This document shows positions 1,044 to 54,096 of a stretch of DNA of 64,000 bases, piece by piece. Position numbers and translations under genes: made by a program. The stretch spans positions 224,001 to 288,000 of the forward strand of contig CAWFGO010000003.1 in the NCBI GenBank assembly GCA_963815455.1, read 5' to 3'. The number at the start of each line of letters is the position of its first letter. Position 1 is the first letter of the stretch. Source of the DNA: an uncultured Verrucomicrobiae bacterium. Its GTDB lineage: Bacteria > Verrucomicrobiota > Verrucomicrobiia > Chthoniobacterales > UBA10450. A model generated the notes under the pieces. It worked only from the letters and a program-made list of their open reading frames with translations, was not told where the DNA came from and ran no database searches.

Positions 1044-1484
1044 ATGAAATCATTCTGGCTGGTGAAACAGGAACCGGGCGCTTACTCGTGGGCGGATTTT
1101 GTGGCTGACGGCAAGACAGCCTGGACCGGTGTGCGTAATTACACGGCGCGAAACAATCTGCGCAAGATGGAAAAAGGCGACGAAGTCTTCTTTTATCACA
1201 GCGGCGGTCCGAGCCGGACTGGCAGTAGTGTCGAAGCAACCAAAGCGATCGTCGGCATCGCGAAGGTTGTGAAAACGGCTTACGCCGATCCAACCGCGAA
1301 GGAAGGCGATTGGAGCGCTGTCGATCTTGCGCCCGTCGAAGCGCTGCGCCGGCCGGTCACGTTGGGTGAGATCAAGGGCAACGCGCGACTCAAGAACATG
1401 CCGCTCATTCGGCAATCCCGGTTGTCCGTGATGCCGGTGAGCGCCGACGAATTTCGAACGATCGTGAAGATGGGGTCAGCGTAG
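1044..1484 (+). CDS. EVE domain protein
   Basis: WLVKQEP, WTGVRNYTARNNLR, FFYHS, RQSRLSVMPV motifs; extra segment GPSRTGSSVEAT after FYHSG. Confidence 0.93.
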   Translation: MKSFWLVKQEPGAYSWADFVADGKTAWTGVRNYTARNNLRKMEKGDEVFFYHSGGPSRTGSSVEATKAIVGIAKVVKTAYADPTAKEGDWSAVDLAPVEALRRPVTLGEIKGNARLKNMPLIRQSRLSVMPVSADEFRTIVKMGSA

Positions 1485-1568
1485 GTGGATCGGCCTCTCC
1501 GAGGGCGATGTTAAACGAATGCGCCTTCGGCGCCCAATTACCAACGCGCTCGGAGATCGCGTTCCACC
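1484..1568. repeat. REPIN (GGTGG-hairpin ... hairpin-CCACC) left of the RAYT
   Basis: GGTGGATCGGCCTCTCCGAGGGCGAT ... AACGCGCTCGGAGATCGCGTTCCACC with central GCGCCTTCGGCGC hairpin. Confidence 0.85.
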
Positions 1569-1621
1569 ACAGATGATCGGCGTCCCCCGCATTACTTGAC
1601 AGCAAGTGGTAACATCGGCCG

Positions 1622-2107
1622 GTGAAAAGCTATCGCGGTTTTCCAGAGCGCTTGCATCACGAAGTGCCCCCATGGATCGAGCCGGAAGCGCTGTTTCACA
1701 TTCGGATCGCGCTGGATCGACAACTGAATCAGCGTGAATTGAGTGACCCGATTCTAGGCCAGGCAATTCTTGATTCTGCCCGATTCTATGAGCGGACCCA
1801 GCACTGGCACCGCGCGCTGCTCGTCTTGATGCCCGATCATTTGCACGCACTGGTAGCATTCGCCCGCGAGAAATCGATGAGCGAGATCATTAGTCATTGG
1901 AAACGCTTTCACACTCGGAGGAATCGGGTCGAATGGCAGGAAGGATATTTCGATCATCGTTTGCGGGCTGATGAGCATGGCCAGCAGTTCGCGGCAAAGG
2001 TCAATTACATCCGGCGAAATCCGGTTATCGCTGGACTGTGCGAACGGGTCGAAGGATCTGGCCCTGGATTATCGATAAGTCTCAAGAAACCGAGTGATGC
2101 AGGCTAA
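1622..2107 (+). mobile_element. REP-associated tyrosine transposase (RAYT, HUH/Y1 family)
   Basis: MPDHLHALV (HUH), WQEGYFDHRLR, YIRRNPVIAGL; probable frameshift near 2053 (EDWPW-like end); flanked by REPINs. Confidence 0.92.
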
Positions 2108-2205
2108 GATCGGCCTCTGCAATATGCCAGTCCGGCTCGGACCGATGTTAAACAAATGCGCCTTCGGCGCCAAATTGCCAACGCGCTCGGAGATCGCGTT
2201 CCACC
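2108..2205. repeat. REPIN right of the RAYT; left arm disrupted by the 20-mer element
   Basis: Direct, near-identical copy of 1488-1568 apart from the inserted segment. Confidence 0.85.
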
Positions 2206-2270
2206 ACTCCGCTGATGGCGGAGCGCAGGCTTGCGACGGTCATCGACTCGCCGCTACAAAGGAGGGCACA

Positions 2271-3097
2271 ATGGAATCGGCAGCAGCAATGGAATTCTTG
2301 CCGGGGGTGGCAGCGCAGCCAGCGTCCCCCGCGATATCTTGGTCGTTTCGCTGCACGACGTCGCTCCTTCCAGTCGCGAGCCCGTGGCGGAAAAAATGAT
2401 AGCCGATCTGTCCCGGCTTGCGGTGTGCGGCTCTGTTCGCTGCTGGTCGTGCCGGATTATCATCATCAAGGTCTCGTCCACGAAGGATCGACAATTCGTT
2501 TCCTGGCTGCGCGAACTGGAAGCGCGCCGGACATGAAATCGTCATTCATGGATATTTTCACGAGCGCCAGCGCCGCGAAAACGAAACGGTGCGTGACAAA
2601 TTTCTTACCCGGATCTACACCGAGGACGAAGGCGAGTTTTACGATCTCGATTACGACGAAGCCTTTCGACGAATCACCGTGCGCGCGAAATGAATTTCGC
2701 GAGAGCGGTTTGAAGCCGATGGATTCGTCGCGCCGGCCTGGCTGCTGGGCGCCGAAGGCCGAACGCGCCGCGCGCGACGCTGAAATGGAATACACAACCC
2801 GGCTGCGCACGATGCGCGATCTGCGTTCAGGCGAAAGTTTTCGCGCCCGATCGATTGTTTACAGCGTCCGGAACAATTGGCGACGCGCCAGGTCAGCCGC
2901 GGCCTGGAACGCCGACGCTGTCCCGGCTGTTGAAGAACAATCCGCTCTTGCGCATAAGCGTTCATCCGCCCGATTATTCGCATCCGGCCATTTGGGGACA
3001 GATTGTCGATCTTGTCACCGAGCAAGCAGGCGAATCGCGAATGGCCACGACCTATCAGGACTGGGTCAGCCGAACAGAGACTGCGGCGACGACTTAA
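2271..3097 (+). CDS. Polysaccharide deacetylase-like protein (DUF2334), frameshifted
   Basis: GGAGG RBS; VVSLHDVAP, HEIVIHGYFH, EGEFYDL, LRISVHPPD spread over several frames. Confidence 0.75.
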
Positions 3098-3101
3098 GCC
3101 C

Positions 3102-5510
3102 ATGAGTAAGTGCGACCTGCATATTCACTCGCGCTACAGCGCGCGGTCGGAGGAATGGCTTTTCCGGCGGTTCGATTTCCCCGATAGCTACTCGGATCCG
3201 CGGAGCTGCATCGGCAATTGATCGAGCGCGGGATGGATTACGTCACGATCACCGACCACGACACGATCGAGGGCTGTCTCCAAATCGCGGATCTGCCTAA
3301 TACGTTCATTAGTGAGCAGGTTACGACGTATTTCCCGCAGGATCCGTGCAAGATTCATCTCCTGGTCTGGGGGATCACCGAGGCTCAGCACGCCGATATC
3401 GTGATTGTCCGCGACAACATTTTCGCTCTCCAACGCTACCTCCAGGCGGGCCAAATCGCCCACGCCGTGGCCCACCCGCTTTACAGCATCAACGGCAAGC
3501 TGGACGCATCGCATCTCGAACGGCTGATTCTGCTCTTCAAGCATTTCGAAGGAATCAACGGGCTGCGCGACGCCCTCCTGAGCGAGCTTGCCCAGAAGCT
3601 TTTCGGTTCGCTTACGCCGGAGAAGATCGACAAGGTTCGCCGACGAAACATGATCTCGCTCCGACCCACCCCGAGCCGTGGAAGAAGATCTTCGTCGGCG
3701 GCTCCGACGATCACGGCGGCAAGTTCATCGCTTCAGCGTTCACCGAAACGCCGGCTGCCGATTCGGCGCGGAAATTTCCTCGAACACGTTCGCGCCGGCA
3801 ATTGCACAGCGCGCGGCAAGGGCGGAACTCCCCTCGCCCTTTCCCACGGCTTTTACAACACGCTTGCTTGTTTCATTCAGGACCGGTTCCACGAAAAACT
3901 GGGACCGAGCGCCGGCTCTGGTCGAGCAAATGTTCTCGCGGTTCATGGAAGGGCGCGACCCGACCGAGTTTACGCTGGCGGAAAAAGCAAACTTCATCGC
4001 CCAAGGCGTTCTCTCGGGAAAAATCTTCGAACTGGCCAAGCCGGCAAATGTTTCGCTTTGGAAAGAGCTTTCCGGTTATTTCGCGCGTCCCGAAGTAAAA
4101 GCGAAGCTGGCCGAGCGATTGGACGCCGTGAGCGAGCCGGAGCGGCGCACGTTTCTCATGGCGAACATGGTGGCCGAGCAGCTCGCGTTTCGATTTTTCC
4201 AGAAATTCGTTCAGCAACTCAGCAGCGGCAACATGTCGAAGGCATGCAAGCGCTCAGCGCGATCGCGCCGATCCTGGTGATCCTTGACGCCTTACATTTA
4301 CGGATTTCACAGCCAGGCGCCGTCGCGGAAATGGCTGCGCGGAATTTTCAAGGAACTGACCGGCGAAATTCCGGCCGCGCTGCAAAATCAAAAGCGGGCC
4401 TGGTTCACCGACACGCTCGACGACGTCAACGGGGTCGCGACAACCATTCGCAAAATGGCCGCTGCCGGCGCGGCCGCGGGAAAGGAATTGATCGTGGTCG
4501 TCTCGCGCAACGAATTGCAAACGGACAACATTCCGATCAAGAATTTCAAACCGATCGGCGAATTCGAGCTGCCGGAATACGAACTGCAAAAGCTCAGTTT
4601 CCCGCCGATCCTCCAAATCCTCGATTACATCCAGCGGGAAAAGTTCACCGAGATCATCATCAGCACGCCCGGGCCGGTCGGGCTTGACCGCGCTGCTCGC
4701 GGCCAAAATGCTCAATCTGCAAACCAGCGGCATTTATCACACCGATTTCCCGCAATACATTCGCATTCTGACCGAGGACAGTTTTCTGGAAAGCGTGGCC
4801 TGGCGTTACATGCACTGGTTCTACGGCCAGCTCGATACCGTCTTCGTAAACTCGGAGGAATATCGCCAAAGCTGGATCAAACGCGGCCTCGATCCGGAAA
4901 AGTTGAAATTTTCCCGCGCGGCCTCGACACCGAACTTTTCCATCCGGCCCGACGCGATCCGGCGTTTTTCGAAAAATTCGGCGCGCAGAACGGCGAGGTC
5001 CGCCTGCTCTACGTCGGCCGCGTTTCGCGTGAGAAAGATCTCGATCTTCTAGCCACCGCTTATCCGACGTCTGCGCGACGAAGGATTGCCGATCGCAACT
5101 TTTTATCGTTGGTCACGGCCCCTATTCGGAGGAACTGGCCAAATCGTTGCCGGAAGCGTTTTTCACCGGCTATCTCACCGGAAAGGATCTGGCCGCGGCC
5201 TACGCTTCGGCCGACATTTTTGTTTTCCCGAGCACGACCGACACTTTTGGCAACGTGATCATCGAAGCGCAGGCCTCGGGGATGCCAGTGATCGTTTCCG
5301 ATGCCGGCGGCCCAAAAGAACTGGTGCATGACAACGAGAACGGCCTCATCACCAAATCGCACGATGCCGACGATCTCGCGCGCGCGATTCGATGCGCTGG
5401 TTGTCGATCCCGCATTGCGCCAGCGAATGGCCAATCGCGCCCGGGAAAGCGTCATCGATCGCACCTGGCCGGCCGCGTTCCGCAAATTTTGGTCGATCAC
5501 CGAAGTTTAG
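3102..5510 (+). CDS. PHP-domain / GT4 glycosyltransferase fusion, frameshifted
   Basis: DLHIHS, ITDHD, GGSDDH (PHP); FTDTLDDVNGVA, YHTDFP, YVGRVSREK, FPSTTDTFGNVIIEAQASG (GT4). Confidence 0.85.
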
Positions 5511-5511
5511 A

Positions 5512-6453
5512 TCAACCCTGCATCGGCGGAGGAATCGGCGGTGGCTGAGACACTGGCTCCGCCTGCGGTATTGCCTGCCACACGTCGTAGTCCGGACCGA
5601 ACTGCCGGAAAAAGCATAATCCAAATGCGCGCAAGCAAACACAGATCGGCAATAGAATGACTGTGCCGACGTACGGGATTGCAGCCAGACAACACGTGAT
5701 GCAAGTCGCGATTGCGCCGATCACGGTCATGGCCAGAAGCAAAACAAACGCGAACAGGCAAAACAGAACAAATACGCCCACGTTGCTGCTGACCAGGCGC
5801 AGCACCTGGCGAAACGCTTCGACCGCGAGACACTTTTGCCGGTACATCACGAACGGCATGAAATACGTCACCAGACTGATGCCGATTGCCAGGGCAATCC
5901 AAAACAGGAAAAGAAAAATCAAGAGAGCGATCAGTCCAGGTCCAATCGATTCGGCATGTCCATGAGACAGCAAGCCCAAGGCTGCGGCGACGGCGCAAAG
6001 CAATCCAAATAGGAAAATCGAGCAGAACATCAACGCCAGCTGGAAGAGGAAATAGCTGTTTCCTTCCTTGCGATACTCACGCCATGGCGCGGCGATCGCG
6101 CCGCGATTTCGAACTATGCAGTCCGTGAAAATAAAATTCCCGCGCGCCTTTACCCAGGTCAGCACCAAAACCAACGCCAAAACCACAACCACGAATACCG
6201 GGATGATGATTGGCAGCCACGGCTTCCACTGGTCGAAATTCGGCGGACTGATGCTCTGGCTGGTCGCAGTACGTCCGCCCCAGTTAGAAGGAAACCCGAC
6301 TCCGCCACCGCCGAAATGCCCGGCTAGAAAAGCGGCAAACCCGATGACGAACCATTTCTTAATGTCGAAGGGCTGAAAAAGAATTTTCTTCATCAGCTCA
6401 AAGGCTTCGCCAAAGGGGCGGAAGATTTCGATTTTCGATTCGGTTCCGTTCAT
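5512..6453 (-). CDS. Multi-pass membrane protein of unknown function
   Basis: 313 aa ORF with several hydrophobic helices and a Pro-rich tail. Confidence 0.75.
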   Translation of the reverse strand: MNGTESKIEIFRPFGEAFELMKKILFQPFDIKKWFVIGFAAFLAGHFGGGGVGFPSNWGGRTATSQSISPPNFDQWKPWLPIIIPVFVVVVLALVLVLTWVKARGNFIFTDCIVRNRGAIAAPWREYRKEGNSYFLFQLALMFCSIFLFGLLCAVAAALGLLSHGHAESIGPGLIALLIFLFLFWIALAIGISLVTYFMPFVMYRQKCLAVEAFRQVLRLVSSNVGVFVLFCLFAFVLLLAMTVIGAIATCITCCLAAIPYVGTVILLPICVCLRAFGLCFFRQFGPDYDVWQAIPQAEPVSQPPPIPPPMQG

Positions 6454-6499
6454 GTGCGCATTTCACTGCTTCCGCATACGCCAATCAAGCACGCAATGT

Positions 6500-6559
6500 T
6501 GTAGCCGCCCCGCTCTATCGGGGCGCCTAAAGGCACGGCGGCAGAGCGCCGTGGCTACA
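6500..6559. repeat. GTAG-type REP doublet
   Basis: TGTAG-hairpin ... hairpin-CTACA; related copies near 33604, 52587, 57666. Confidence 0.7.
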
Positions 6560-6565
6560 TCGATC

Positions 6566-7204
6566 CTAACCGGTGCCGAAATAGCGGTCGCCCGCGTCGC
6601 CCAGGCCGGGAACAATATAGCCGGATTTATCCAGTTCGGGATCGACGGCGGCGGTAAAGATCGCCACGTCCGGATGCGACGATTGCAGTTGGTCGATGCC
6701 CGGCTGACACGCAACCAGACAAATAAACTGAATCCATTTCGCGCCCTTTGCTTTCAACGCCGTGACTGCTTCGCAAGCGCTGTTGCCGGTTGCCAGCATG
6801 GGATCGAGCAGAACGACCTGCGCTTCGCTCAAGTTGGCCGGCAATCGGCAGAAATACGTCACAGGGCGCAGCGTTTTCTCATCACGATAAATGCCGATGT
6901 GTCCAACGTTCGCCTCCGGAACAATGCGCATCATTCCTTCGAGCATGCCAAGACCGGCCCGCAAAATCGGCACCAGAGCGATTGGTCTCGATAGAAAGTA
7001 ACCCGCGCATTTTTTCAGCGGCGTTTCAATTTCGATCGGCGACACTGACCAGGTGCGGGAAGCTTCGCCCAGCAACAAGATCGAGATCTCCTGCACGTTC
7101 TGGCGGAATTGTTCCGGCGTGGTCGCCTTGGCCCGCAAGATCGACAGCTTCGCTGCGCCGACCGGATGGTCGATCACGCTTACTGCTCCGTTATTTCGCT
7201 CCAT
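6566..7204 (-). CDS. upp: Uracil phosphoribosyltransferase
   Basis: VPILRAGLGM, LDPMLATGNS, YIVPGLGDAGDRYFGT. Confidence 0.97.
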   Translation of the reverse strand: MERNNGAVSVIDHPVGAAKLSILRAKATTPEQFRQNVQEISILLLGEASRTWSVSPIEIETPLKKCAGYFLSRPIALVPILRAGLGMLEGMMRIVPEANVGHIGIYRDEKTLRPVTYFCRLPANLSEAQVVLLDPMLATGNSACEAVTALKAKGAKWIQFICLVACQPGIDQLQSSHPDVAIFTAAVDPELDKSGYIVPGLGDAGDRYFGTG

Positions 7205-7318
7205 ATTGTAGCCGAGGGTACTGACGCCGGCCGAACCCGATTTAGCAGAACGAAGAAACAGAGCACAGACAAAATGCCCGGGGCTTAGCGAGCGCCGGTT
7301 AGAAACGCACAAGTCCAC

Positions 7319-7475
7319 TGTCATTCTGAGCCAAGCAGAGCGGAGTCGCCTGCCACGCCGAAGCCTTTGGCGAAGGCGGGAAGAATCCCGTGGTAGAACT
7401 CCTAGGTAACGTGACGGGATCCCTCCCGCCTTCGCATTGAGCTACGGCGCGGCAGGCGACTTCGCTCGGGATAAC
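7319..7475. repeat. GTCAT-type palindrome, copy 2, with a 32-bp element in each arm
   Basis: Inserts at 7349-7380 and 7425-7456. Confidence 0.8.
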
Positions 7476-7508
7476 CGGTGGATAGTTGTCTAGTCAACAT
7501 CCATCGCC

Positions 7509-9454
7509 ATGTTGAGGAATCACGTGAACAACCTGGCGAAACGCAAATATCCCATCGGAGCCGAATTGATCGGGCCGGGCGAAACGCATTTTCGCGTTTG
7601 GGCGCCAAAGGCGGAACGGGTCGATCTTGTTTTGGAAGCAAGTGCATCCAAGGAAGCGAAGCGCACGTTTCATCCGTTGCAGCCTGAGCAAGGCGGATAT
7701 TTTTCCGGCTCAGCCAATGTTGTCGCCGGCGGCGGCTATAGGTTTCGCGTTGACGACGCGAAACATTATTCATCCCGATCCCGCGTCTCGCTTTCAGCCT
7801 GATGGGCCGCACGGTTCGTCGTGCGTTGTTGATCCCGCGCATTTCCAATGGACCGATGCAAAATGGCATGGCCTAAAACTTAAGGGCCAGGTCATCTACG
7901 AAATGCACGTCGGCACATTCACAACGGAAGGCACATGGCGGGCCGCTGCGGAACAGCTACCAGAGCTGGCTCGCATCGGGATCACCGTGATTGAAATGAT
8001 GCCGATCGCGGATTTCCCGGGAAATTTCGGCTGGGGTTATGACGGGGTCGATCTTTTCGCGCCGACGCGGTTGTATGGAAGGCCCGAACGATTTGCGGGC
8101 CTTTATCGACCGGGCGCACGCGCTGAATCTCAGGTGTGATTCTTGATGTCGTGTACAACCACTTCGGCCCAGACGGAAACTATCTACATGTCTACTCCGA
8201 CAATTATCTGCGGCATGGAAAGACAACCGATTGGGGCGACTCCATCAACTTCGACGGCCCGAACTCGGGACCAGTGCGAGAATTTTTTATCACCAACGGG
8301 CGTTACTGGATTGAGGAGTTTCATTTTGATGGATTTCGCTTTGATGCCACGGAAAGCATTCATGACGACTCGGAAGAGCACATCCTCGCGACTGTTGCCC
8401 AGACCGCGCGTAGTGCAGCGGGCGACCGTTCGATCATTCTGGTGGCCGAAAACGAACGGCAGGACATCAAATTGATCCGGCCGCGGAGCGAAGGTGGCTA
8501 CGATCTGGATGGCGTCTGGAATGATGATTTTCATCACAGCGCGAGCGTCGCGCTGGTGGGTCAGCGCGGAGCGTATTATACAGATTACCTCGGTGCGCCG
8601 CAGGAATTTATTTCCGCGGCCAAGCACGGTTATCTTTTTCAAGGACAAGCGTATTCCTGGCAGGAAGCGCCCCGCGGGAGCCTGGCTTTTGGCGCGCCGC
8701 CGGAAGCGTTCATCGCCTTTATCGAAAATCACGATCAAGTTTCCAATGCCGCCGGGGGCCAACGCATCCGATTAGAAACTTCTCCCGGCCGTTATCGCGC
8801 CATGAGTGCTTTGCTCCTGCTCGGTCCGTGGACGCCGCTTCTCTTTCAAGGCCAGGAATTCGGATCCTCGAAGCCGTTCCTTTTTTTCAGCGACGTCGGC
8901 GATGAGAGCATTCGGGAAGCGATTCGCAAAGGCCGTTTCGCATTTCCTGGCCCAATTTCCTTCGCTGGCAACCCCGGACGCGCAAAAACAACTGCCGCGA
9001 CCTTCAGATCCGGCTACCTTTGCCCGGTGCAAGCTGGATGTTTCGGAGCGCGCTAAAAACAAACCAGATCTACGATCTCCATGTCGACCTGATAAAATTA
9101 CGCCACGAGGACGCGCGTTTTCGCGAACAAATCGTCGGTGGCGTGGATGGCGCTGTGTTGGGGGCAAGGAGCTTTGTGTTTCGCTATTTTTCGGATGGAA
9201 ATGACGATCGTTTGTTGCTTGTTAATCTAGGCAAGCCTCAATTGCTCAAGCCCATGCCGGAACCACTTCTTGCCGCCCCGCCTGGGTTTGAATGGGCCAC
9301 GCTTTGGTCGAGTGATTCCGAGCAGTATGGCGGACCAGGAGAGAACCAGGTCGCAAACCAAAATGACAGTTGGGTGTTGCCCGGCGAAGCGACCGTCGCG
9401 CTGAGACTTGTTCCGCGAGAAAACTCCGCGCCGGCCGCCAAAGTGGCGCGATAG
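7509..9454 (+). CDS. treZ: Malto-oligosyltrehalose trehalohydrolase (GH13), frameshifted
   Basis: FRVWAP, YEMHVGTFT, WGYDGV, DVVYNHFGPDGNYL, DGFRFDA, ENHDQV, LFQGQEF. Confidence 0.92.
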
Positions 9455-9466
9455 AACATCCGGATC

Positions 9467-11552
9467 GTGCACAATTGGACGAACAAAAAGGGTGAGATCG
9501 GTGGAGTCGTCGTGCGTACGATGCCGTGGGACGGCGCCCAAATGTCGCGCGAGCTTCTGCTCCATCGTGAGTGGATCGTGACAAACGGCCTTGGCGGTTA
9601 TGCGTCCGGCACCGTTTCGGGCGCGATCACGCGGCGTTATCATGGGTTGCTCATCGCGGCTTTGCCCGCACCACATGGCCGCATTGTCATGTGGAGCCAC
9701 GTCTCGGAGTTTCTGCGCTTCGGCGACAAGGATGTCATTTCGTTAGGCGGAGAAGAACGGGCCGGTGGCCGGCTGGATTTACAAGGCGCCGATTACTTGC
9801 ATGAGTTTCGACTCGAAGATGGTCTCCCCGTCTGGACTTATCACGTGCGCGATCTCGTTCTGGAGAAGCGAGTGTTGCTTCCGCATTTGCAGAACACGGT
9901 CCATATCAATTACCGAATTCTTCAAGGCACGGAGCGTCCGCGCCTGGAGTTACGACCCGCGTTTCATTTTCGACATCACGAAACGCCGGTGAACGAAGGC
10001 CCCACCGCTCCCTACAAACTAGCCGCTGTCGAAGGCCGATATGAAATCACTTCGTCCCGCGGCCGTCTTCCCCCGTTGCGGATGAAACTTTATGACTGCG
10101 AATCGGCTTTTACCATCGCCGCCGCCAATATTCACCAGGTCATCTACCGCACCGAACAGAGCCGCGGGTACGCCCACGAAGGCAACTTGTGGAGCCCGGG
10201 CTATTTCCATGTCGATCTTCGCGAGCATCGATCGCGCCACCCTGGTCGGTTCGACCGAGAAATGGGACATCATCGAAGTGCTCGGACCGGAAGCGGCCCT
10301 GGGTCTGGAACGGGAACGCCGCGCCCGCTTGTTGCAAAATGCCATGCCCGAAATACGCGAAGGGTTTGCTGCCGAATTGGTTTTTGCAGCCGATCAGTTC
10401 ATCATTACTCCAGCGGGCCGGTTTGAAGAAGCGGCGCGCGCCCACGCCGCCGGAGACGAGGTGCGCACCGTCATAGCCGGTTATCACTGGTTCACCGATT
10501 GGGGACGCGACACGATGATCAGTCTCGAAGGTCTGGCCCTGATCACCGGGCGCTCACTCGAAGCGGGGTATATCCTGAGAACTTTCGCCGATTATGTCCG
10601 TGACGGATTGATCCCAAACATGTTTCCGGACCGCGAGACAGAAGGCCTTTATAATACAGCCGACGCGACCCTTTGGTTTTTCCATGCCTTGTATCGTTAT
10701 CTGGAACGCACCCAGGATTGGACAACGCTCAAGCTTTTGCTGCCGACTTTGATCGACATCGTCGAACATCACCTGCGGGGCACAAAGTTTAATATTCATG
10801 TCGATCCTGTGGATGGATTGCTGGTGCAAGGCCAGGACGGCTATCAACTCACCTGGATGGATGCGAAGACGGGCGACTGGGTCGTCACGCCCCGCCGTGG
10901 CAAAGCCGTCGAGATCAACGCGCTTTGGTACAATGCACTCGCTTTACTCTCAGGATGGCTGCGGCGAATGGATGAATCCGCCGCGGCCGAGCGCTACGAC
11001 GAACATGCTAAACGCGCGCGCGATTCATTCAACCAGCGCTTCTGGTTCGCCGAGGGCGGCTACCTCTACGACGTCGTCGATTGCAATGGCCAACCGGGAA
11101 CTTACGATGTCTCCTGTCGCCCAAACCAGATTTTCGCGATCTCCCTCGATCATCCCGTTCTCGATAAAGAGCGCTGGAGCGCCGTTGTCGATCTTGTCCA
11201 GAGAAAGCTGCTTACACCGGTTGGGCTTCGATCGCTCTCGCCGGACGATCCCGAATACAAACCAGTCTATGGCGGCGATCTGCGGGCCCGCGACGGCGCC
11301 TATCATCAAGGCACAGTCTGGGCCTGGCTCATTGGCCCATTTATCGACGCCTGGATGAAAGTTCACCCGGACGACAAGAAGAGCGCGCGGAAATTCCTTG
11401 AGGTCTTCCCCGTTCACCTCAGTGACAACGGGATCGGCACGATCGGTGAAGTATTCGACGCCCGCGAGCCGCACATGTCTGGCGGCTGCATCGCGCAAGC
11501 GTGGAGCGTGGCGGAGGTGCTGCGTTCCTGGGTAAAGACGGCGGAGCAATGA
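9467..11552 (+). CDS. Glycogen debranching enzyme (amylo-alpha-1,6-glucosidase), frameshift near 10225
   Basis: EWIVTNGLGGYASG, IAGYHWFTDWGRDTMISLEG, LTWMDAK, YHQGTVW, AQAWSVAE. Confidence 0.92.
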
Positions 11553-44900: not shown

Positions 44901-45851
44901 AACCGCCGCGTCGAGCGCAAGCAGAACAGGCGCCGAATCGCCAATCGGCGATGCCGTCACCAGATTGCCACCCATGGTTGCGCGATTTCTGATTTGTCGC
45001 GAGCCGAATAAATACAGCATGTCCGCGATCGCCGGATATTCCGCGCCGAGTTTTTCCTGGATCGCAGTGAGCGTTGCCGCGCCGCCCACACGCCATTCTT
45101 TTTCCGTGCTGCTGATTTGCGTCAGCTCAGGAACCGCCTCCAGGGAAATGAAAATACCGAACTTTTGAAAACGCTTCGAAATGTCGAGACCCAGTTCGGT
45201 CGCGCCGGCAATCAATCGCGCCTTGGGGTGATCGGCCATGAATTTGAAGAGCTCGGCCATCGAAGTCGGCCTCAGAAATTTCTCGCCGTTGCTGCCGTAC
45301 TGCACCGACTTGAGATCGAGACGCCCACTCTTCAGCACAGCCTCAAACGGATCATTGTCGATCTTACAAGCGAACGCTTCGACCGCGGCGTCGTTGATCG
45401 GTCTGTATCCTGTGCACCGGCACAAATTTCCTGCGACTTGTTCGTCAAGTTGCGCGCGCGTGATCAAATTCTTCCGGTAATAGCCTTCAAAGAGCGACAT
45501 AATGAACCCGGGAGTGCAATAACCGCATTGCGACCCGTGATTTTCGACCATGGCCTGCTGCACCGGATGCAAGCTTTCTCCCCGGGCGACGCCTTCCACG
45601 GTCACGATGTCGCGGCCGGCCATTAACACCAGCGGGACCAAACAACTGTTGATGGCGCGATAACGACGCTCCCCGTTCGTATTAAGATCGACAATCGCCA
45701 CCGAACACGCGCCGCAATCACCCTCCGCGCATCCTTCCTTCGATCCGGTCAAGCCGCTGGCCCGTAACCAGTCGAGCAAAGTCGTGTTCGGCGAAATCGA
45801 ATCCAGACGGATGGAATTCCCGTTCAACCGAAACTCAATCGCGTCAGTCAT
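41983..45851 (-). CDS. xdhB: Xanthine dehydrogenase, fused 2Fe-2S/FAD (XdhA) and molybdopterin (XdhB) chain, frameshifted around 43780-43920
   Basis: GCAEGDCGAC, QCGYCTPG, NLCRCTGY, QIRNRAT in frame with HVTGEAIYVDD; then RMGGGFGGKE, AFRGFGGPQ, SKAVGEPP. Confidence 0.92.
44320..44459. repeat. 140-bp palindromic element translated within xdh
   Basis: TTAACACCGGGCTTTAGCCCGGTGA ... TCACCGGACTAAAGCCCGCTGTTAA with inner AACCGTTTCAACGGTT / AGCCGTTGAAACGGCT. Confidence 0.8.
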
Positions 45852-45870
45852 AACGTGATTCGCATGAAAT

Positions 45871-46011
45871 CTGGGGAGCACAGGCCGCTGGCCTGTAGTT
45901 CGCGGCAGCTTGCCGCGAAACCTTCTTCAAGCTGGTTCTCATTGTATGAGGGCCGAAGATGCATTCGGCAAGGCTGCCGAATGCTGCAGGCTAGCAGCCT
46001 GCGCTCCCCAG
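45871..46011. repeat. GGGAGCAC-type multi-hairpin REPIN, copy 1
   Basis: CTGGGGAGCACAGGC...GCCTGCGCTCCCCAG; copies at 58805 and 59814. Confidence 0.8.
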
Positions 46012-46035
46012 AAGAGACCCATTCGATCGCACGAT

Positions 46036-47403
46036 TCATTTCTTAGCTCTTCGCCCTTCGAGAATCTTGAAAAACGAACGCGAACGAATTCATCGAGGGT
46101 CAGGCCGGTGGCGAGCGCTTCCTCTTCGGTAATTGCGCCGCAGGCGATCCCGCGCAGGAAAAAATTGAGAAGTCCCTGCCCGGTCGCGGCGTCGTCGAAC
46201 ACGTCGCCGAAAAGAGAAGCCAGCGCCGCCTTTTCGACAAAGGTCTTCAGACGATTCGACGCCGGTTCCAGCCCTTCCATGAAGAAAGAATAGACCGCAG
46301 CATAACGAGTCACTAATTGCGCCGGATGAAGGTCCCATCCTTGATAGAACCCGGTTCGCAGTGAATGCAGATTATCGTTAAATCCCAGACGCCATGCTTG
46401 ATGCACCGCCGTCCGATTCTCTTCGATCTGCATTTTCGTTAGAGGCCGATTTGCCGTAGCCCGATGCGGTCCGACGGGCAAAATGTTCGTCGCGCCGTCA
46501 GAGAGATGAATGCCCGTCCCGGCCAGCGAGACCAGCATGACCTGCCGCGCGAAATCGCAAGCCGGATGTCCCATCGTTTGATAGGCCGCGGTGATGCTGC
46601 ACGATGCCGTGTAATCGTAAACGCCAAAGTGCACGCTGCCGCAACGACCTTCGGCAGCGGCGACCAATGACATCAGCGCCGATTCACCGCGCTCGTTAAG
46701 AATGGCCTGCGGAGTTTCGATCATCGGTTCAATTTTCAGCGAACCGGACGGCAACCCGTTTTTGTTTTCTAGAATTTCAAACAGGCGCGCCGCGGCCGTC
46801 ACGTGCGCCGGCAGCTGGACCTTCGGCACGGTGATCACAAAATTGTCCGGCAACTTTCCACCAGTTTCCTTCAGCAAGGTGGTCACGAAGATGTCGAGGG
46901 TGCGGATGCTTCGTGCCCGCAGATCTTCGTTCAACGGTTTGATGCGAATTCCAACGAACGGCGGCAAACTCCTGGCCGTAATCCCCCTCGCAACTTCGAG
47001 CGCGCTAGATACGGCATGGCCGTCCTCTTCCGCGTCGGCTCGGTTGCCATAACCGTCCTCGAAGTCGAGCCGAAAATCTTCCACCGGCTCGCGCCGAAGC
47101 TTTTCGACCACACGATCGTAAACTCGTTGCGCCAATTGCTGGTCGCCGGTCATTCCAACAGCCTGAGCCAGGGTTGCGGCGTCGGGCGCATATTCCTCCA
47201 GCGAACGCAACGCGACTGCGCCCAGTTTTTCGGCAGAATCGGTTTTGAAAAGATGCGCGCCGCCATAAACCGTATGCACTGCCTGCCGCCGATTCGATTC
47301 GCCGGGGTAACGCTGCATGAAATCTTTGTTCGCCTTACTGAGAGCAGCAACGATTTCCTGAACCTTGTCTGGGTCGAAGCGTCGTATGGAACTTTGGAGT
47401 CAC
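46036..47403 (-). CDS. HpcH/HpaI aldolase / citrate-lyase-beta-like protein (DUF6986-like), frameshifts near both ends
   Basis: VHTVYGGA, DFRLDFEDGYG, VPKV, MIETP, HFGVYDY, SDGATN, YQGWDLHPAQ. Confidence 0.8.
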
Positions 47404-48700
47404 GTGGTAGGCCGAATAAATTTTCCTGAAGGCAAACCGGTGATTTTACCACGGGCAAACACGGTTTGTCCGCGCAAAACTGTGCGCACGATCCGGCCCC
47501 GCAGACGACGGCCGACATAGGGACTGTGCTGATGCCGATAGAGCAGCGATTTGGCGGTGACGACTTCTTCGGCTGCAGGATCGACAATGGTAATATCGGC
47601 ATCTTGGCCGATTGCGATTTCGCCTTTTTCCGCCAAACGAAACCGTTTCGCAACTTGCCGGCTGGTTAGATCGACAATCCGTTTCAAGGGAACATCTCTG
47701 TCGAGCAATATTGTTAGCAAATGCTGACAACCTGAAATTCCGCCCCACACCTCAAAGAAATTCCGTCGATCCTTCATCGCCCACGGTGACGGCGAGTGAT
47801 CGGAGCCGATTGTCGTCACCTGATCGAGCCGATTGCACAGATCGCGATGTTCAAGGAAATCGCGAAAAGGAGGCGCACACTTTGCCCCGGCCCCGATTTT
47901 TTTCATGTCGGCCGCCTGAAACATCAAGTAGTGGGGACAGGTCTCACAGGTCACGTCCACACCTTCTCTCGCGCGCCGAGAACGAGCCCGACGCCTCGAC
48001 CACAACTGACATGCACGATGTGCAGGCGGCAGCCTGTTTCTTCCGCGAGATCGATCGACTTGCGAATGGCATCCAGCTCCGCTTCGACCGAGCGGGATTC
48101 GAGATAATCAGCAATCTTGGTTTTTTTCGCCGCGATCTTTTCTCTGGTCAGGCGACTTACCATCTCCTGCGATTCCGCATGCACGGCGACCAGAAGATCG
48201 AGATCGGCCGCGCGTTTCATCCCCTCGCGCAGGATCGACATCGTCACACTAGGAAAATCATCGATGCCGCTGTCACACATGAATGCCTTTAAACCGACAA
48301 CGCCTCGATCGTGGAGCGTAGAGAGATCCTTGAGATTATCAGAGACAAGACCACCCCACAGCCCGAAATCGACAAACGATTTCTTTTCTGCAGCCGACCT
48401 TTTTAAATCGAAGCTGGCACCATCAAGAGTCGGCGGATGGGCATTAAGCGGCATGTCGAAAACGGTCGTGGTGCCTCCAGCAGCAGCGGCCTGCGAACCG
48501 GTTTCAAATCCTTCCCATTCGGTGCGGCCGGGCTCATTGAAATGAACGTGTGAATCGATCACGCCGGGAAGGATCGACAAGTTTGTCGCGTCGATTTCTT
48601 CTCGAGAGGTTCCGGCCAGATTTTTGCCAATCGCCGCGAATTTGCCCTCCACGATGCCCAGATCACGTTCGGCGCGGACAATCAAGTCGAAGTCAGCCAT
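47400..48700 (-). CDS. allB: Allantoinase, frameshift near 47960
   Basis: DSHVHFNEPGRTEWEG, DMPLN, HAES, HIVHVS, ETCPHYL, KCAPP, SDHSP. Confidence 0.93.
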
Positions 48701-48706
48701 GAGGAG

Positions 48707-48818
48707 AATGACGAAATCCGAATGACGAATTACGAATTAAATCCAAATGACAAAGTCCGAAATTCGTCATTCGTGCTGTCGGCATTCCTTTTTCATTCGT
48801 CATTCGTGCTTCGACATT
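48707..48818. repeat. Inverted heptamer-array element (AATGACG type) overlapping the alc 3' end
   Basis: AATGACGAA units versus TTCGTCATT units. Confidence 0.65.
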
Positions 48819-49837
48819 TTCCCCGGCATTCCCCACATGCGCAATCGGCTCACGCCGCCATCGGGGTAAATATTCAACCGGATGTGGCTGCACTTGCCGA
48901 TCGCGCAAAGCTCCTTTTCGAAGAAATGCCTCGTGTCGGCGCTCAATTTTGTTTTGGGAAGGATCTCACTCCAGCGAGTATTTGGTTTGGTGAGTTCGTC
49001 GGTCGATACGTCTGACTCTGCGGCGCATCCCTCGATCGAGCACATATCAGGGTAGTTCCCTTTAAAGTGATTGGTGTCGACTTCGATTTTCTTGATCGAG
49101 CCGGTTCGCCCCAGCTTCACCACAATCCAGTCGTGACCGGGACCGCGCCGGCGTTTTGTTTCCCACCCGTCCCCCATGTTCTCCGCGCGACCTGGCATGA
49201 TGAGATTGTTCATTGAGCTGAAAAACATATCGCTACAAGCCAGTGCAACTCCCCCATTCTCGATGGCGGCAAGATCGACAAGTTCTCCGTCCTTAACCTT
49301 GCTCCAATCAGGAACGACGATCCCGTAAACGCGGAGCCGCGCAACCCCGCCATCCGGGAAAATATTCAGGCGCACATGCGCCCACGTCTTGTCGGTCGTA
49401 ATGCCAAACAGATTCTGGGACCCGGGGTTCAATGGAGATTTCTCCAACACTGGAACCCAGGAAAGCTTTTCCACGCCGGCAATGCTGCCAGGAAATCCAT
49501 TCCCCAGGTCGATGGCATCCAGCGACGCGAACGAAGGATGATTTCCGAGAAAGTGGTTCGTATCGATGTCGATCTGCCTTATGACGCCGCGCAATCCTAA
49601 TTGAATGACGCACCAGTCATTCCCAGGAGTGCGGCGCCGGCGTGTTTCCCATCCGTCCATCCATTTACCGCGTTCGGTATACTTATCCGGAATGAAGATT
49701 CCACGGCCGGGCTTGAGAAGATTCTCTTTCTCCGCAAAAAACTCGTCGTTCGCTATTACCGCGACGCCACCGACGCGTTCGGAGGCAAGGTCGATAAGGC
49801 CAGCGGGCGCGGGCGACGTTGAATCAGCGGCATTCAT
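48800..49837 (-). CDS. alc: Allantoicase
   Basis: Two repeats of DGWET(R/K)RRR, DTNHF.GN, NI(F/Y)PDGGV.RLR. Confidence 0.96.
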   Translation of the reverse strand: MNAADSTSPAPAGLIDLASERVGGVAVIANDEFFAEKENLLKPGRGIFIPDKYTERGKWMDGWETRRRRTPGNDWCVIQLGLRGVIRQIDIDTNHFLGNHPSFASLDAIDLGNGFPGSIAGVEKLSWVPVLEKSPLNPGSQNLFGITTDKTWAHVRLNIFPDGGVARLRVYGIVVPDWSKVKDGELVDLAAIENGGVALACSDMFFSSMNNLIMPGRAENMGDGWETKRRRGPGHDWIVVKLGRTGSIKKIEVDTNHFKGNYPDMCSIEGCAAESDVSTDELTKPNTRWSEILPKTKLSADTRHFFEKELCAIGKCSHIRLNIYPDGGVSRLRMWGMPGKMSKHE

Positions 49838-49850
49838 CTGCCTTGTCTTC

Positions 49851-49939
49851 TGTCATGTTGAGCGGAGCGAAACATCTCGGCAACTGGTTTGACATAGACT
49901 GTTCGCCAAGAGAGATCCTTCGCTTGGCTCAGGATGACA
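49851..49939. repeat. GTCAT-type palindrome, copy 6
   Basis: TGTCATGTTGAGCG...CTCAGGATGACA. Confidence 0.75.
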
Positions 49940-49986
49940 ACCGATAGTGCTGCGATGTAACCATTAATCGGGCAATTTACAAATCT

Positions 49987-50319
49987 TCAGCTGCCACGAT
50001 AGGTGCTGTAAGACCATGGCGAGACCAGCAATGGCACATGATATTTCGCCGCCGGATCGGAAATGATGAAACGAACCGGCACTTGATCGAGAAACTTTCG
50101 CTCTCCAAAATAATCGCCGACGAAAAAGACCAGCTCGTAAGCTCCCGCAACCATCTCGGCGTCGCTGAGCATTGGCGCGTCGGTGCGGCCGTCGGCATTG
50201 GTGCGGGCCATCTTAACGAGCTTGCGCGCGTCGCCAGCGACCGACCATAGTTCGATTTGCATTCCGGCAGCCGGGCATCCGCGCATTGTGTCCAGAACGT
50301 GAGTGGTCAGCGTGCTCAT
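49987..50319 (-). CDS. uraH: 5-hydroxyisourate hydrolase
   Basis: LTTHVLD, YHVPLL, STYRGS. Confidence 0.97.
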
Positions 50320-50810
50320 TCGACGATTTCCTGCAAGCGTAATTCGGCAATCTTAAAAATTTCGTTCAATGCCGTCTCCTTTTCTTGTTCGACAGAATTT
50401 TTCAAACGATCTGAAAAGGCGGCGAGAATCGCTTCCTTCTTGTTAAGCCGCGCGCAAACAACGAACGGGAATCCGAATTTGTTTCGATATTGGCGATTAT
50501 GGTCTTCGAACGTGGCGAATTCTTCTTCGGATAATCCATCGAGTCCGGCGCTTTCTTGCTCGCCATGCGATGCTTTAGTGAGCACCGCGCGTCCGGCTAA
50601 ATCGGGATGCGCGCGAATCAGTCCCAGTTTGGCCGGCTCATCAGCGGTGGCTACGGTTCGACAGAGGGCCCCATGCAACTGCTCTCTGCTTTCAAACGGC
50701 CGCTGCGCCCACGTCTTCTCGGCAATCCAGGCGGAATGCTCAAAAACAGGTCCGATCACCTGTGTGAATTCCTCTCGATCCAGCTCATTCAATTCCCGGA
50801 GATTTAGCAT
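50316..50810 (-). CDS. uraD: OHCU decarboxylase
   Basis: FEHS, HPDL, EQ..AGL, KFGFPF, IAELRL. Confidence 0.95.
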
Positions 50811-50850
50811 CGCCTAATCGTCTTAAGTCAATTACTCATATTGTTCAATT

Positions 50851-51687
50851 ATGAGGCTCCAGAGCCATCGATACGGGAAAGCGCGGGTCCGCATAGCCAA
50901 GGTTTTGCGCAGCGACAAAACGCACACGATCAAGGAGATCAACGCGGCAGCGATTCTGGAGGGCGACTTTGGCTCATCCTACACCGCGGGCGATAACACG
51001 AAGGTTGTCCCGACTGATACGATTAAAAATACGATCAATGTTCTCGCCAAGGACCAGCTCGGCGAAGAGATCGAACCGTTCGCCGTTGCCCTGGGCGAGC
51101 ATTTCCTAAAGCGCTACCAACAGGTGCGCGCAGCCAGGATCGACATCGACGAACGCGATTGGCGGCGAATGGAGATCGACGGAAAACCGCACCCGCATTC
51201 GTTTATCGCCGGCAGTGATGCAAAACGATTTACCCGCGTCGTCTGCACTCGCGATTTACAGACTATCGAGTCCGGCATTCGCAATTTGGTGATTCTAAAA
51301 TCAACCGGATCGGGCTTTGAGAATTATCCGAAAGACGAATTCACCACGCTGCCGGAAACCGCGGACCGGATTCTCGCGACATCGTTCAGCGCTACCTGGG
51401 CCTACGCAGGGAAACCGACGAGCTATCGTGACCGCAACGAGAAGATTCTTTCGGCCATGGTGAAAGTTTTCGCGAACAATTATAGTCCATCCGCGCAGGC
51501 GACATTGTTTGAGATGGGCACCGCGGCGCTCGAGACTTGTCCCGAGATTTCGCGCATTGAATTGGCCATGCCAAACAAACATTACTTACTGATCAATCTC
51601 TCCCCCTTCGGTCGCGAGAACAAAAACGAGGTGTTTACGCCAACGGATGAACCGCACGGCCAGATCGAAGCGATCATCACAAGATGA
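50851..51687 (+). CDS. pucL: Urate oxidase (factor-independent)
   Basis: YGK, VPTDTIKNT, LKSTGSGF, TTLPE..DRIL, SAQ, MPNKH. Confidence 0.96.
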   Translation: MRLQSHRYGKARVRIAKVLRSDKTHTIKEINAAAILEGDFGSSYTAGDNTKVVPTDTIKNTINVLAKDQLGEEIEPFAVALGEHFLKRYQQVRAARIDIDERDWRRMEIDGKPHPHSFIAGSDAKRFTRVVCTRDLQTIESGIRNLVILKSTGSGFENYPKDEFTTLPETADRILATSFSATWAYAGKPTSYRDRNEKILSAMVKVFANNYSPSAQATLFEMGTAALETCPEISRIELAMPNKHYLLINLSPFGRENKNEVFTPTDEPHGQIEAIITR

Positions 51688-51782
51688 AGCACCGAATCCC
51701 AAGCACCAAGCATCAGGGAAATCCCAAATTCCAATATTCAATCGAGCGACCGTGTAATCTTGGAGCTTGGGTATTGGAGCTT
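51687..51782. repeat. Inverted heptamer-like array (AAGCACC / TTGGAGC type)
   Basis: AAGCACC..AAGCACCAAGC ... TTGGAGCTTGGGTATTGGAGCTT. Confidence 0.55.
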
Positions 51783-51790
51783 TCGCGGCG

Positions 51791-52591
51791 ATGAATGATC
51801 ACCTGCTTGAAGAATTATTACGGGCTCGCCAAACCCGAACCCTTTGCGCGCTCGCCACCGTCGCCGCGACCACCGGTTCCGTCCCGCGGCAGACCGGATC
51901 AAAAATGCTTGTTTATGGCGACGGGAAGATTTCCGGCACCGTCGGGGGAGGAAAATTCGAGGCGCTCGTAGTCAAAGATTGTCTAAAGAGCATCGCGCAG
52001 AAAGAGCCAGTGCTGAAATCATATCCATTGCGCGAAGACAGGCCCGACTCGTTTGGAGCCATCTGCGGCGGCGAGGTCACTGTCATGATCGAGCCTCAAA
52101 ATCTGAGCACGGCGATTTTTCTGGTGGGCAGCGGACATTGCTCGCTGGCGGTGGCCAAACTCGCTCTCGATTGCGGGATGCATGTCACGGTGATTGACGA
52201 TCGGGCTGATCTCCTGGAAAATTTTCCGCCGCTGGCTCATCGCGTTACAACCGATGCTGCCAAATTCATCTCGAAGAGGAAATGGCATAAAGATGAGGCC
52301 TTGGTCCTCATCAGCCGCAATTACGAACTGGACAGAGACGCGCTGGGCGCCGCTCTCAAAACAAAAGGCGCCGGGTATATCGGGATGATCGGCAGCCGCC
52401 GCAAGGTACTGCGCGTTTTTGATGAACTAAGGAAAGAAGGCGTTAGTCCAAGGCGTCTCAAGGAAATCTACGCGCCGATCGGACTCGACATCGGCGCGGA
52501 TTCGCCTGCGGAGATTGCCGTGAGCGTCATCGCCGAAATTCTCAAAGTGCAACGCAAGCGAAAAGGCGATCACATGAGACTGACGTTGTAG
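51791..52591 (+). CDS. xdhC: XdhC/CoxI molybdoenzyme maturation factor
   Basis: GSVPR, GTVGGG, ICGG, YIGMIGS, PIGLDIGA..P.EIAVS. Confidence 0.93.
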   Translation: MNDHLLEELLRARQTRTLCALATVAATTGSVPRQTGSKMLVYGDGKISGTVGGGKFEALVVKDCLKSIAQKEPVLKSYPLREDRPDSFGAICGGEVTVMIEPQNLSTAIFLVGSGHCSLAVAKLALDCGMHVTVIDDRADLLENFPPLAHRVTTDAAKFISKRKWHKDEALVLISRNYELDRDALGAALKTKGAGYIGMIGSRRKVLRVFDELRKEGVSPRRLKEIYAPIGLDIGADSPAEIAVSVIAEILKVQRKRKGDHMRLTL

Positions 52592-52639
52592 CCGGGGTCG
52601 GTGACCCCGGCCGGACCGGCATCAGCGATGCCGGCTACA
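52587..52639. repeat. GTAG-type REP doublet supplying the stop codons of both convergent genes
   Basis: TGTAGCCGGGGTCGGTGACCCCGGC / CCGGCATCAGCGATGCCGGCTACA. Confidence 0.75.
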
Positions 52640-53975
52640 GCTCGCCAAACGCGCGGTCCAGAACCTCGAGGAGAAAATCGGCGTCCTGTTCGTTAACGCA
52701 CATCGGCGGCGAAAAACGGATGGTTTGTCCCCATAGGCCACCCTTGCCCAGAAGCAGGCCCATCTCCTTGCAGTTTTCCAAAACCTGCGCGCATTCCTCC
52801 TTGGCCGGTTCCTTTGATTGTCGATCCTTGACCAGCTCGATGCCGAGCATGAGGCCTTTGCCGCGGACGTCGCCGATGAGATTGTGTTTTGCCTTCAGCT
52901 TGTTCAGGCCGGCCAGAAGTCGATTACCGATCTTAAGCGAGTTAGCCTGGAGTTTTTCGCGATCGATCACTTCCAGAACAGCTTTCCCCTGCGCGGACAC
53001 GACCGGATTGCCGCCGAACGTATTGAAATGGATGCGTTGCGCGAGCGCCGCCGCAATCTTCGGTGTAGTCACGACCGCGCCTAACGGACAACCATTGCCG
53101 ATCCCTTTCGCCATGGTCACAATGTCCGGAATCACATCCTGGGTTTCGAATCCCCAGTAATGCGTGCCGGTGCGGCCGAAGCCGGCCTGGACTTCGTCGG
53201 CGATGCACAAGCCACCCGCGCCCCGCACATGCTCGTAGACGTGCTTGAGATAACCGTCCGGAAACACGACGCAGCCACCGACGCCTTGGATTGACTCGGC
53301 AATAAACGCCGCGACCTGACCAGAGGTGGCGAAATCGAGAACATCCTTCACGTCTTTGGCGTATTTCTTCCCGGCCTCGGGATCGTCTCGGCCCCAGGCG
53401 CCGCGATACGGATCAGCGGCGATGGCGTGATGAACGCCGAAACTGTGCGGCACGTTAAACTTCCAGGTGCGATGCGCGGTCAGGCCCATCGTGGCCGCGT
53501 TGCCCCCATGATAGGCATTTCGCAACGCGATGACATCGTAGTTGCCGGTGTAGGCGCGCGCCATCAGCAATGCCAGATCGTTTGCCTCCGAACCCGAATT
53601 AACGAAATAGCAGACCTTCAAATCGCCGGGCATTTTCTCCGCCAGCGCCTGGGCATACTCGGCAACATTCGGATGCAGATAGATCGTGGTGGAATGCTGC
53701 AGCGTTTCGTTTTGCTTGTTTGCAGCAGCGGCAACATGGGGATGACAATGGCCGACGCTTACCGTCACGATTCCGCCAAGCGCATCCAGGTAGCGGCGGC
53801 CTTTCTCGTCCCAGAGGTACTGCATCTTTCCCTCCACGAACATGATCGGCTTCTTGTAATAGAGAAAAATTCCCGGATTCAGGAATTCCTTACGCAACCG
53901 CAACACCTCGTCGGCCGACGGGCCGGTATACTTCTGCGGTTGATGGTCGAACGGTGGAAGGTCAGGTGTTTTCAT
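52635..53975 (-). CDS. Class III aminotransferase (AGXT2/PYD4-like; beta-alanine or alanine-glyoxylate)
   Basis: [50 protein letters not shown]. Confidence 0.9.
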
Positions 53976-53983
53976 TTCTTTGT

Positions 53984-54096
53984 TGTCATCCCGGCGAAAA
54001 TGCCAGTCCGGCTCGGACCGAGGGATCCCGTTGCGAAACCGGTCAGCTAGCTTTCACGGGATCCTTCAACTCCGCTTCGCTTCGCTCAGGATGACA
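53984..54096. repeat. GTCAT-type palindrome, copy 7, carrying the 20-mer element
   Basis: Insert at 54001-54020; right arm provides the NCS1 C-terminus (DVILSEAKRS). Confidence 0.8.

Follow-up and report, generated by a model that had tools for sequence, protein, structure and literature searches.

A mobile 18-nt hairpin unit of Verrucomicrobiota genomes that inserts in register and replaces adjacent target bases

The 64,000-nt stretch of an uncultured Verrucomicrobiae bacterium analyzed here (contig CAWFGO010000003.1, positions 224,001 to 288,000; hereafter the window) carries three copies of a very small repeat. We found this repeat to be a mobile unit of 18 nt, Y-GCC-N-GTCCG-GCT-CGGAC, with a paired stem, an exact 3′ junction before a target C and a preference for other repeats, whose arrival adds a net 18 bp and replaces bases of the target. 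An earlier note on this DNA had proposed active mobility, and the comparisons below do reveal a tiny hairpin that moves, its 3′ junction precise and its 5′ junction ragged. It is most likely a non-autonomous micro-element of the kind represented in cyanobacteria by the small dispersed repeats (SDRs), copied in trans by a nuclease that would carry donor flank along.

As that note had read it, an identical 20-mer is present at 1205-1224 (reverse strand), 2125-2144 and 54001-54020 (both forward strand); an exact-match search found all three, and nothing else in the window matches with up to three mismatches. The chance expectation is a mean of 0.03 copies, and none of 100 shuffles gave three or more. 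The repeat had been taken for a fixed and perfectly conserved 20-mer, and here the earlier reading needs revision. Among 26 copies profiled in the genome from which the window comes (G000), position +1 is C in 23 and position +2 is G in just 12, so the final CG of the 20-mer is target sequence and the unit is 18 nt long. The position profile defines its conserved part as GCC-N-GTCCG-GCT-CGGAC after a pyrimidine, with GCC near invariant, T, C or G at position −1, any base at position 4 and variants of the stem, while A16 is unchanged in 308 of 309 copies. The small hairpin GTCCG-GCT-CGGAC described earlier is predicted in all three window copies, at a z of only −1.2 to −1.5 relative to shuffles.

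The genome-wide count that the earlier note had called for gave further copies in G000 (3.62 Mb, 90% complete): 8 exact 20-mers, 17 with at most one mismatch and 41 with at most three. With one mismatch allowed, the 20-mer is found in 18 of 24 genomes of the family and in 0 of 16 genomes from other families of the order. Of 301 family genomes, 214 contain the 17-nt core, with 3,066 copies in all, a maximum of 133 per genome and some genera nearly empty, against two matches for the reversed core; outside the family, 4 of 249 genomes of the phylum gave one or two matches each. Among the at least 120 stretches matched in a GTDB scan, 80 have titles, and 73 of these come from Verrucomicrobiota, for the most part Chthoniobacterales and Candidatus Udaeobacter. 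These tallies take in the unpublished genomes G003, G008, G015, G151, G188, G259 and G273, of which the first three contribute loci to the EVE and LeuRS orthologs discussed below; no claim is based solely on unpublished genomes. A library adapter, primer or assembly artefact, which the earlier note had itself raised along with an absence of other copies, could be entertained given that all of the genomes are metagenome assemblies. It is ruled out in effect, and its probability is negligible, by the restriction to one family across many assemblies, by shared and decayed copies at orthologous sites, by compensatory variants and by in-frame placement.

The junctions were read from 321 filled sites, 68 of which could be aligned with an empty sister at both flanks. 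The net gain is 18 bp in 44 of these pairs, 17 bp in 10 and another value in 14, and the right flank is identical from its first base in 50 of the 68, an exact 3′ junction. On the other side of the unit two, and sometimes three, target bases are lost and as many foreign bases are gained. In the 44 pairs with a net +18, filled and empty sequences agree at position −2 in 5 and at −1 in 4, compared with 27 at −3 and 35-43 at other positions; the two replaced positions are mostly G in the empty sites (29 and 22, respectively) and mostly A in the filled ones (30 and 32). One repeat position could be followed on its own: there GT stands in 42 of 68 empty copies and AA, TA and TG in none, and the 19 filled copies, with nine different leader strings, all lack GT. 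The junction lies before a target pyrimidine, mostly C, and this C is already present in 37 of the 44 empty targets; in genus g8, +1 is C in 102 of 144 copies. There is no target duplication, as had been claimed, a 3-bp match between left and right flanks occurring at 4-5 of the 321 sites. The earlier description of the junctions as exact at the 3′ end, ragged at the 5′ end and accompanied by loss of host bases therefore holds, apart from its constant CG after GGAC, which belongs to the target. Clean coding orthologs agree, with six extra residues each in MetRS, an ABC-F protein and two others.

The foreign bases 5′ of the unit, which we call the leader, differ from lineage to lineage. At position −1, G000 mostly has T (17 of 26 copies), genus g8 mostly C (90 of 144) and the viral contigs G (22 of 42); position −2 is A in about half of the family copies and in 0 of 41 sites in the distant genome G578. 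Because its composition is lineage-specific, we infer that the leader is copied or inherited from the donor rather than added untemplated by a general repair polymerase.

G578, a 2.6-Mb genome of a distant family, has undergone a burst, with 185 copies compared with 2-21 in four congeners (a genome to which a looser pattern led). All 92 units read in G578 have the two-sided stem change GTGCG/CGCAC, with varied loops; the pairing kept through this change shows that the stem is required. Head-to-tail arrays of 2-7 units make up 23 of 41 sites, a single C linking the units at 48 of 51 joints. Insertion ahead of the C of an older copy would build such arrays, and tandem pairs elsewhere obey the same rule of insertion before C. 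Seven filled/empty pairs could be formed in G578, of which three are +18, and base replacement is less clear there. In a separate genome, an array of at least six units (G532:C58:11233-11322) has a 4-nt loop that restores the 18-nt period without a linker base. The GTGCG stem is rare in G000, where it is found in four copies; two of them lie 489 bp apart in mnmA (G000:C3:598033 and 598522), a hint of local copying.

Other repeats are favored as hosts, 14 of 34 G000 copies adjoining one compared with 4.6% of random sites. The hosts include GTCAT-tagged palindromes, the REPINs of REP-associated tyrosine transposases (RAYTs; REP, repetitive extragenic palindrome) and heptamer arrays, as well as short tandem repeats in G578. 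Genes are also entered: in-frame copies are found in LeuRS, MetRS, TrpRS and EVE, and G000 copies lie in the open frames of LeuRS, TrpRS, NDH-2, SucC, PolX, Sir2, TrmB, OGG and MnmA. A length divisible by three and the lack of stop codons in all six frames let insertions within genes survive. Clean orthologous pairs are few, since spacers turn over fast. One DNA sequencing run examined (0.05 share) held distant relatives only and no empty allele, and no RNA run was listed.

The LeuRS site is filled in 3 of 14 orthologs and empty in 11. The orthologous LeuRS insertion (G000:C1:929903; L746, L748) is near identical in G000 and G011, which belong to different genera, and decayed in the same-genus G001, a pattern that suggests allele exchange. 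For EVE, the comparison of filled and empty orthologs proposed earlier showed 25 of the 28 orthologs listed to be empty, including one of the same genus (FYHSG-EE-KAVV). The earlier note was right that an in-frame copy lies in an EVE gene, now confirmed as such; the loop is 30 bp longer than in orthologs, not 20 bp: here the 18-mer together with a 17-nt foreign leader substitutes five bases. That leader holds GTAG on the forward strand, possibly a REP remnant. The loop after FYHSG (window 1200-1245) has gained 30 bp in G000, 39 bp with a related copy in G051 and 30 bp with a different repeat in G059, all at one and the same codon. It has thus been filled in three genera by two repeat types, in frame each time (L132, L134). 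A second element, of 21 nt, nests in the unit's loop to give a 39-nt form. This hairpin element inserts precisely after G (G000:C1:1097049, C5:162891, C5:221254; L235, L304, L265), the unit's loop included, and a longer relative with its 3′ hairpin has about 10 copies in G000.

Features of the window that bear on the three copies of the unit
Feature	Position	Strand	Remark
EVE-domain gene, host of copy 1	1044..1484	+	PF01878
Copy 1 of the 18-nt unit (T-GCC-A-stem-GCT-stem)	1207..1224	-	antisense in the EVE gene; part of GPSRTG
17-nt foreign 5′ leader of copy 1	1225..1241	-	with the unit replaces 5 ortholog bases, net +30 bp
Empty sister REPIN	1481..1568	+	upstream of the RAYT-like gene
RAYT-like HUH transposase gene with its own REPINs	1622..2107	+	neighbor; mobilizer role not supported
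Downstream REPIN, host of copy 2	2108..2205	+	
A-rich leader AATA of copy 2	2121..2124	+	sister: GAGGG; net +17
Copy 2 of the 18-nt unit	2125..2142	+	
GTCAT-tagged (CGTC/SRM-type) palindromic repeat, host of copy 3	53985..54095	+	
Leader AA of copy 3	53999..54000	+	GT in empty sisters
Copy 3 of the 18-nt unit	54001..54018	+	

Window sites 2 and 3 show a net +17 relative to their best sisters, and single-base assembly errors may contribute to the site differences in the window. Many genes in the window are frameshifted, and the several split genes within 2215-5550 are probably long-read assembly errors. The RAYT-like gene matches NF047646 (E 1.5e-16, 60.6 bits, under the 80-bit cut-off) and no Pfam family. 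An Rfam scan of the window returned two tRNAs and nothing else.

The unit is also found in viral contigs, 38 stretches of which matched. Five contigs have several copies (9, 3, 2, 4 and 4), and these share a strand in 9/9, 3/3, 2/2, 4/4 and 3/4 cases, that is, 21 of 22 copies lie on the majority strand. One-strand copies characterize G590, G591, G592 and G594 (L175, L189, L187, L169), with 9/9 in a Mu-like contig. Density in some phage contigs (9 copies in 40 kb) exceeds that of any genome examined. Tandem arrays were not found in the viral contigs, and a looser loop pattern applied to them gave mostly chance matches.

How might such a unit move? The reading we favor, tentatively and as something a little short of probable, is that it is a non-autonomous 18-base hairpin copied as single-stranded DNA (ssDNA) by a nuclease that reads the hairpin and is encoded elsewhere; a small GIY-YIG protein of the Ssn type is the most plausible candidate. 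The trans-acting enzyme would bind the YGCC-tagged hairpin in the donor strand and cut 2-3 nt upstream of the unit, in the donor flank. The hairpin end would then be joined to, or copied onto, the target strand at N^Y; with the unit looping out, the 2-3 bases brought along would take the place of target bases in register, and replication would fix the change. Sections of PMC11893778 describe SsnA as a protein that binds no DNA other than ssDNA, depends on the C that follows the palindrome and on the three bases ahead of it, and makes its cut a few nt upstream, within the variable flank; by analogy, this behavior appears to fit the junction anatomy best. GIY-YIG genes, UvrC included, are present in 151 of 151 family genomes, and their counts correlate with copy density across the family with a rho of 0.34, a comparison in which, as in all our copy-density correlations, related genomes are not independent.

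Several observations weigh against the GIY-YIG proposal. Within genera, the correlation with GIY-YIG counts is seen in 0 of 11. In assemblies that are 76-95% complete, no GIY-YIG gene ends in or is flanked by the unit at 8 loci of G000, 17 of five high-copy genomes and 15 of genus g157, and these 40 loci have other palindromes or none; nor was a unit-flanked GIY-YIG gene found at 71 loci with a T-arm context or in the five viral contigs. The two richest genomes, G115 and G578, each have one small GIY-YIG gene, tied to another palindrome. Ssn proteins cut DNA, and joining or insertion is not shown in the sections of PMC11893778 considered; compared by eye, the unit does not fit the published SRM consensus HGTCWY...RNCYNB, its tag reading YGCCAG. 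Most of the empty sites used above are sister repeats, not true pre-insertion alleles. Leader sharing between neighboring copies is no higher than chance (45 close pairs, p 0.38), strand bias relative to transcription is not significant, and leading and lagging placements number 12 to 17 in the bacterial genome.

Small GIY-YIG cassettes linked to tRNA genes do occur in G000 (G000:C1:173914-174330; G000:C3:553068 and 490439). They end in partial tRNA copies with other palindromes, of 18 and 14 nt, which are scattered in 10 and at least 12 places in that genome, replacing bases in repeats. In G123, a copy of the unit lies within the broken 3′ end of a tRNA-Pro-linked GIY-YIG gene (L415, G123:C5:107415). 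L328 and six similar metagenome loci have the unit's own 13-nt hairpin, without the GCCA tag, directly before a tRNA-like T-arm, with no nuclease gene found nearby.

No mobilizer was found in searches for reverse transcriptases (RTs), RAYT/Y1 and GIY-YIG proteins, GxxExxY nucleases and four-helix-bundle proteins or among neighboring open reading frames (ORFs), and the occurrence of these protein classes does not follow that of the unit. Pfam searches of 147 ORFs beside viral copies gave no nuclease in common, those of 122 ORFs beside G000 copies gave no common mobilizer, and neither did 131 small ORFs in 926 kb of G578. Candidates rejected along the way were a GxxExxY nuclease (two in G578, none found in G115, two in a zero-copy genome), a four-helix-bundle protein (one sub-cut-off match in G578, six in a zero-copy genome), a tRNA-arm cassette (70 metagenome loci and one viral locus, with no GIY-YIG or RAYT match) and a YajD-type HNH gene 70 bp from a G578 array, which has no homolog in G000. 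This yield would fit a reading without a dedicated chromosomal enzyme, in which the unit spreads when a polymerase switches templates or ends are repaired at fragile sites rich in hairpins, or through a phage-borne annealing or nuclease protein, the two foreign bases being untemplated. The A-rich replaced positions of the main family, the preference for repeats, the dense phage contigs and the patchy bursts among congeners favor such a route. Strict conservation of the GCC tag outside the stem implies a sequence reader, however, the leader varies among lineages and lacks an excess of A in G578, no nuclease is common to the ORFs beside viral copies, and the register is fixed even at non-coding sites, where frame is irrelevant. 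On this evidence we judge the route unlikely, with an appreciable residual chance.

The gene between copies 1 and 2 directs attention to a trans-acting HUH tyrosine transposase, either a RAYT or an enzyme of the IS200/IS91 type, by which the 3′-OH of the element would be joined to a 5′-phosphotyrosine target and host flap repair would leave the 5′ end ragged. HUH chemistry yields an exact 3′ junction without duplication, and the Y1_Tnp profile matches in 139 of 151 family genomes, with 16 RAYT-like genes in G000. Yet insertion of IS200/IS605 elements entails no loss of target bases and keeps a conserved target tetranucleotide 5′ of the insertion, unlike the sites of the unit, where target bases are lost. 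The unit also lacks a GTAG tag and its junctions are N^C rather than CT or CA sites. The 17 RAYT-like genes read in G000 have other REPs or none, G578 has one weak Y1 match, and Y1 counts correlate with copy density at a rho of 0.16, with a single nominal p within 11 genera (0.037, in g8). In favor of such an enzyme, passages of PMC8266576 show TnpA-REP joining an attacking oligonucleotide to a cleaved substrate and working on stems of 5 bp. Overall, an HUH enzyme seems to us unlikely. The special role that the earlier note had given to the neighboring RAYT is not supported: the gene has its own REPINs, and the unit sits in one of them as a passenger.

An RT-based route had also been put forward. 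In its target-primed, R2-, retron- or DGR-like forms (DGR, diversity-generating retroelement), a short RNA would serve as template for synthesis on a cut target, with errors or untemplated bases at the far end. An exact 3′ end, a ragged 5′ end and a small target loss are the polarity of target-primed reverse transcription, which the 2-bp loss at the unit's sites resembles; the AAY leader and the variable A4 are reminiscent of adenine mutagenesis, and the arrays of G578 are stepwise. This route finds little footing in the genomes, and we consider it very improbable. Pfam RVT_1 matches in 12 of 151 family genomes and 2 of 28 genomes with at least 20 copies, and it was not found in G000, although this profile may miss divergent RTs. 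DGR-type adenine mutagenesis is rejected given the invariant A16. The longer master copy envisaged earlier did not materialize, none of 351 sites being a master copy with conserved flanks, and no permuted template or long autonomous version was found in G000, only the 39-nt nested form.

A more far-reaching version of the trans-acting proposal is an undescribed single-strand "write-in" system, whose enzyme, belonging to none of the HUH, RT and DDE classes, would paste in register an 18-nt hairpin open in six frames and overwrite the two adjacent target bases. Such a system would prey on the hairpins of other selfish repeats, could lengthen its own arrays by one unit at a time and would pass between distant families of Verrucomicrobiota, perhaps carried by phages. 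We regard this as doubtful; if true, the hairpin would be among the smallest mobile DNAs known. For SDRs and REPs alike, the way in which repeats of ~20 nt move has yet to be explained. The present family leaves a signature at its junctions that can be measured, namely the overwriting of two bases, +18 in register and an N^C target. With insertions in the thousands, naturally varying stems and loops, and one burst genome whose congeners are almost empty, the enzyme can be searched for, and donor flanks tested, directly. The family includes Candidatus Udaeobacter, which is among the commonest of soil bacteria, and essential proteins there gain six-residue loops from the unit. As a tool, an enzyme able to place a short tag in frame, with no duplication, would also be of use.

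SDRs, the closest parallel, were reportedly described in Nostoc and its relatives by Elhai et al. in Genome Research in 2008 as repeats of 21-27 nt. They are said to land in heptamer repeats, minitransposons and copies of themselves, and reportedly show filled and empty alleles at the same site, compensatory upkeep of the hairpin and nesting. The unit shares these habits, with filled and empty alleles, compensatory retention of its hairpin and nesting in repeats and in itself, and both are mobile repeats of very small size that carry a hairpin but no gene and for which no enzyme is known. The unit differs in size (18 nt net, or ~20 nt with its leader, against the reported 21-27 nt), in phylum and, apparently, in sequence. 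SDRs are cited in passages of PMC3116915, PMC4390886 and PMC3733652; SDR5 appears in cited excerpts as a precise insertion in HIP1, whereas the unit replaces two target bases. The NTS/SRM-Ssn system (Chenal et al. 2025, PMC11893778), in the sections considered, is likewise a directional hairpin with an unpaired 5′ tag (YGTCA there, YGCCA in the unit), a C that directly follows the palindrome and, immediately ahead of the hairpin, a variable flank in which SsnA cuts; the unit is half the size, departs from the SRM consensus, has no flanked gene that we found and itself inserts into SRMs. REPs and REPINs mobilized by RAYTs, in the portions of PMC8266576, PMC3116915 and PMC3733652 considered, resemble it as short tagged hairpins without target duplication, with lineage bursts and a presumed ssDNA intermediate. 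Unlike them, the unit has no GTAG/CGTC tag, has N^C junctions, is often intragenic, occurs singly or in head-to-tail arrays rather than as inverted doublets and has no cognate RAYT that we could find. Rickettsia palindromic elements, as excerpted from PMC10969869, also lie in frame in unrelated housekeeping genes, at ~150 bp compared with 18 bp. A non-autonomous IS200/IS605 derivative does not match, the 5′ target bases of the unit being variable and replaced. Neither does a DDE-type miniature inverted-repeat transposable element (MITE), there being no terminal inverted repeats (the 5′ tag is unpaired) and no target-site duplication, nor do the RT-made elements (retron, DGR or target-primed), few of the carriers showing an RT and no template locus having been found. 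By the features tested, the unit is not a REP, an SRM, an IS200/IS605 derivative or a MITE. Searches by stem sequences, by Udaeobacter and Chthoniobacterales repeats and by related terms, which mostly excluded subscription journals, found no published description of it. It is a real, mobile element of a known but mechanistically unexplained, SDR-like kind, smaller than its cyanobacterial counterparts are reported to be and distinguished by overwriting target bases.

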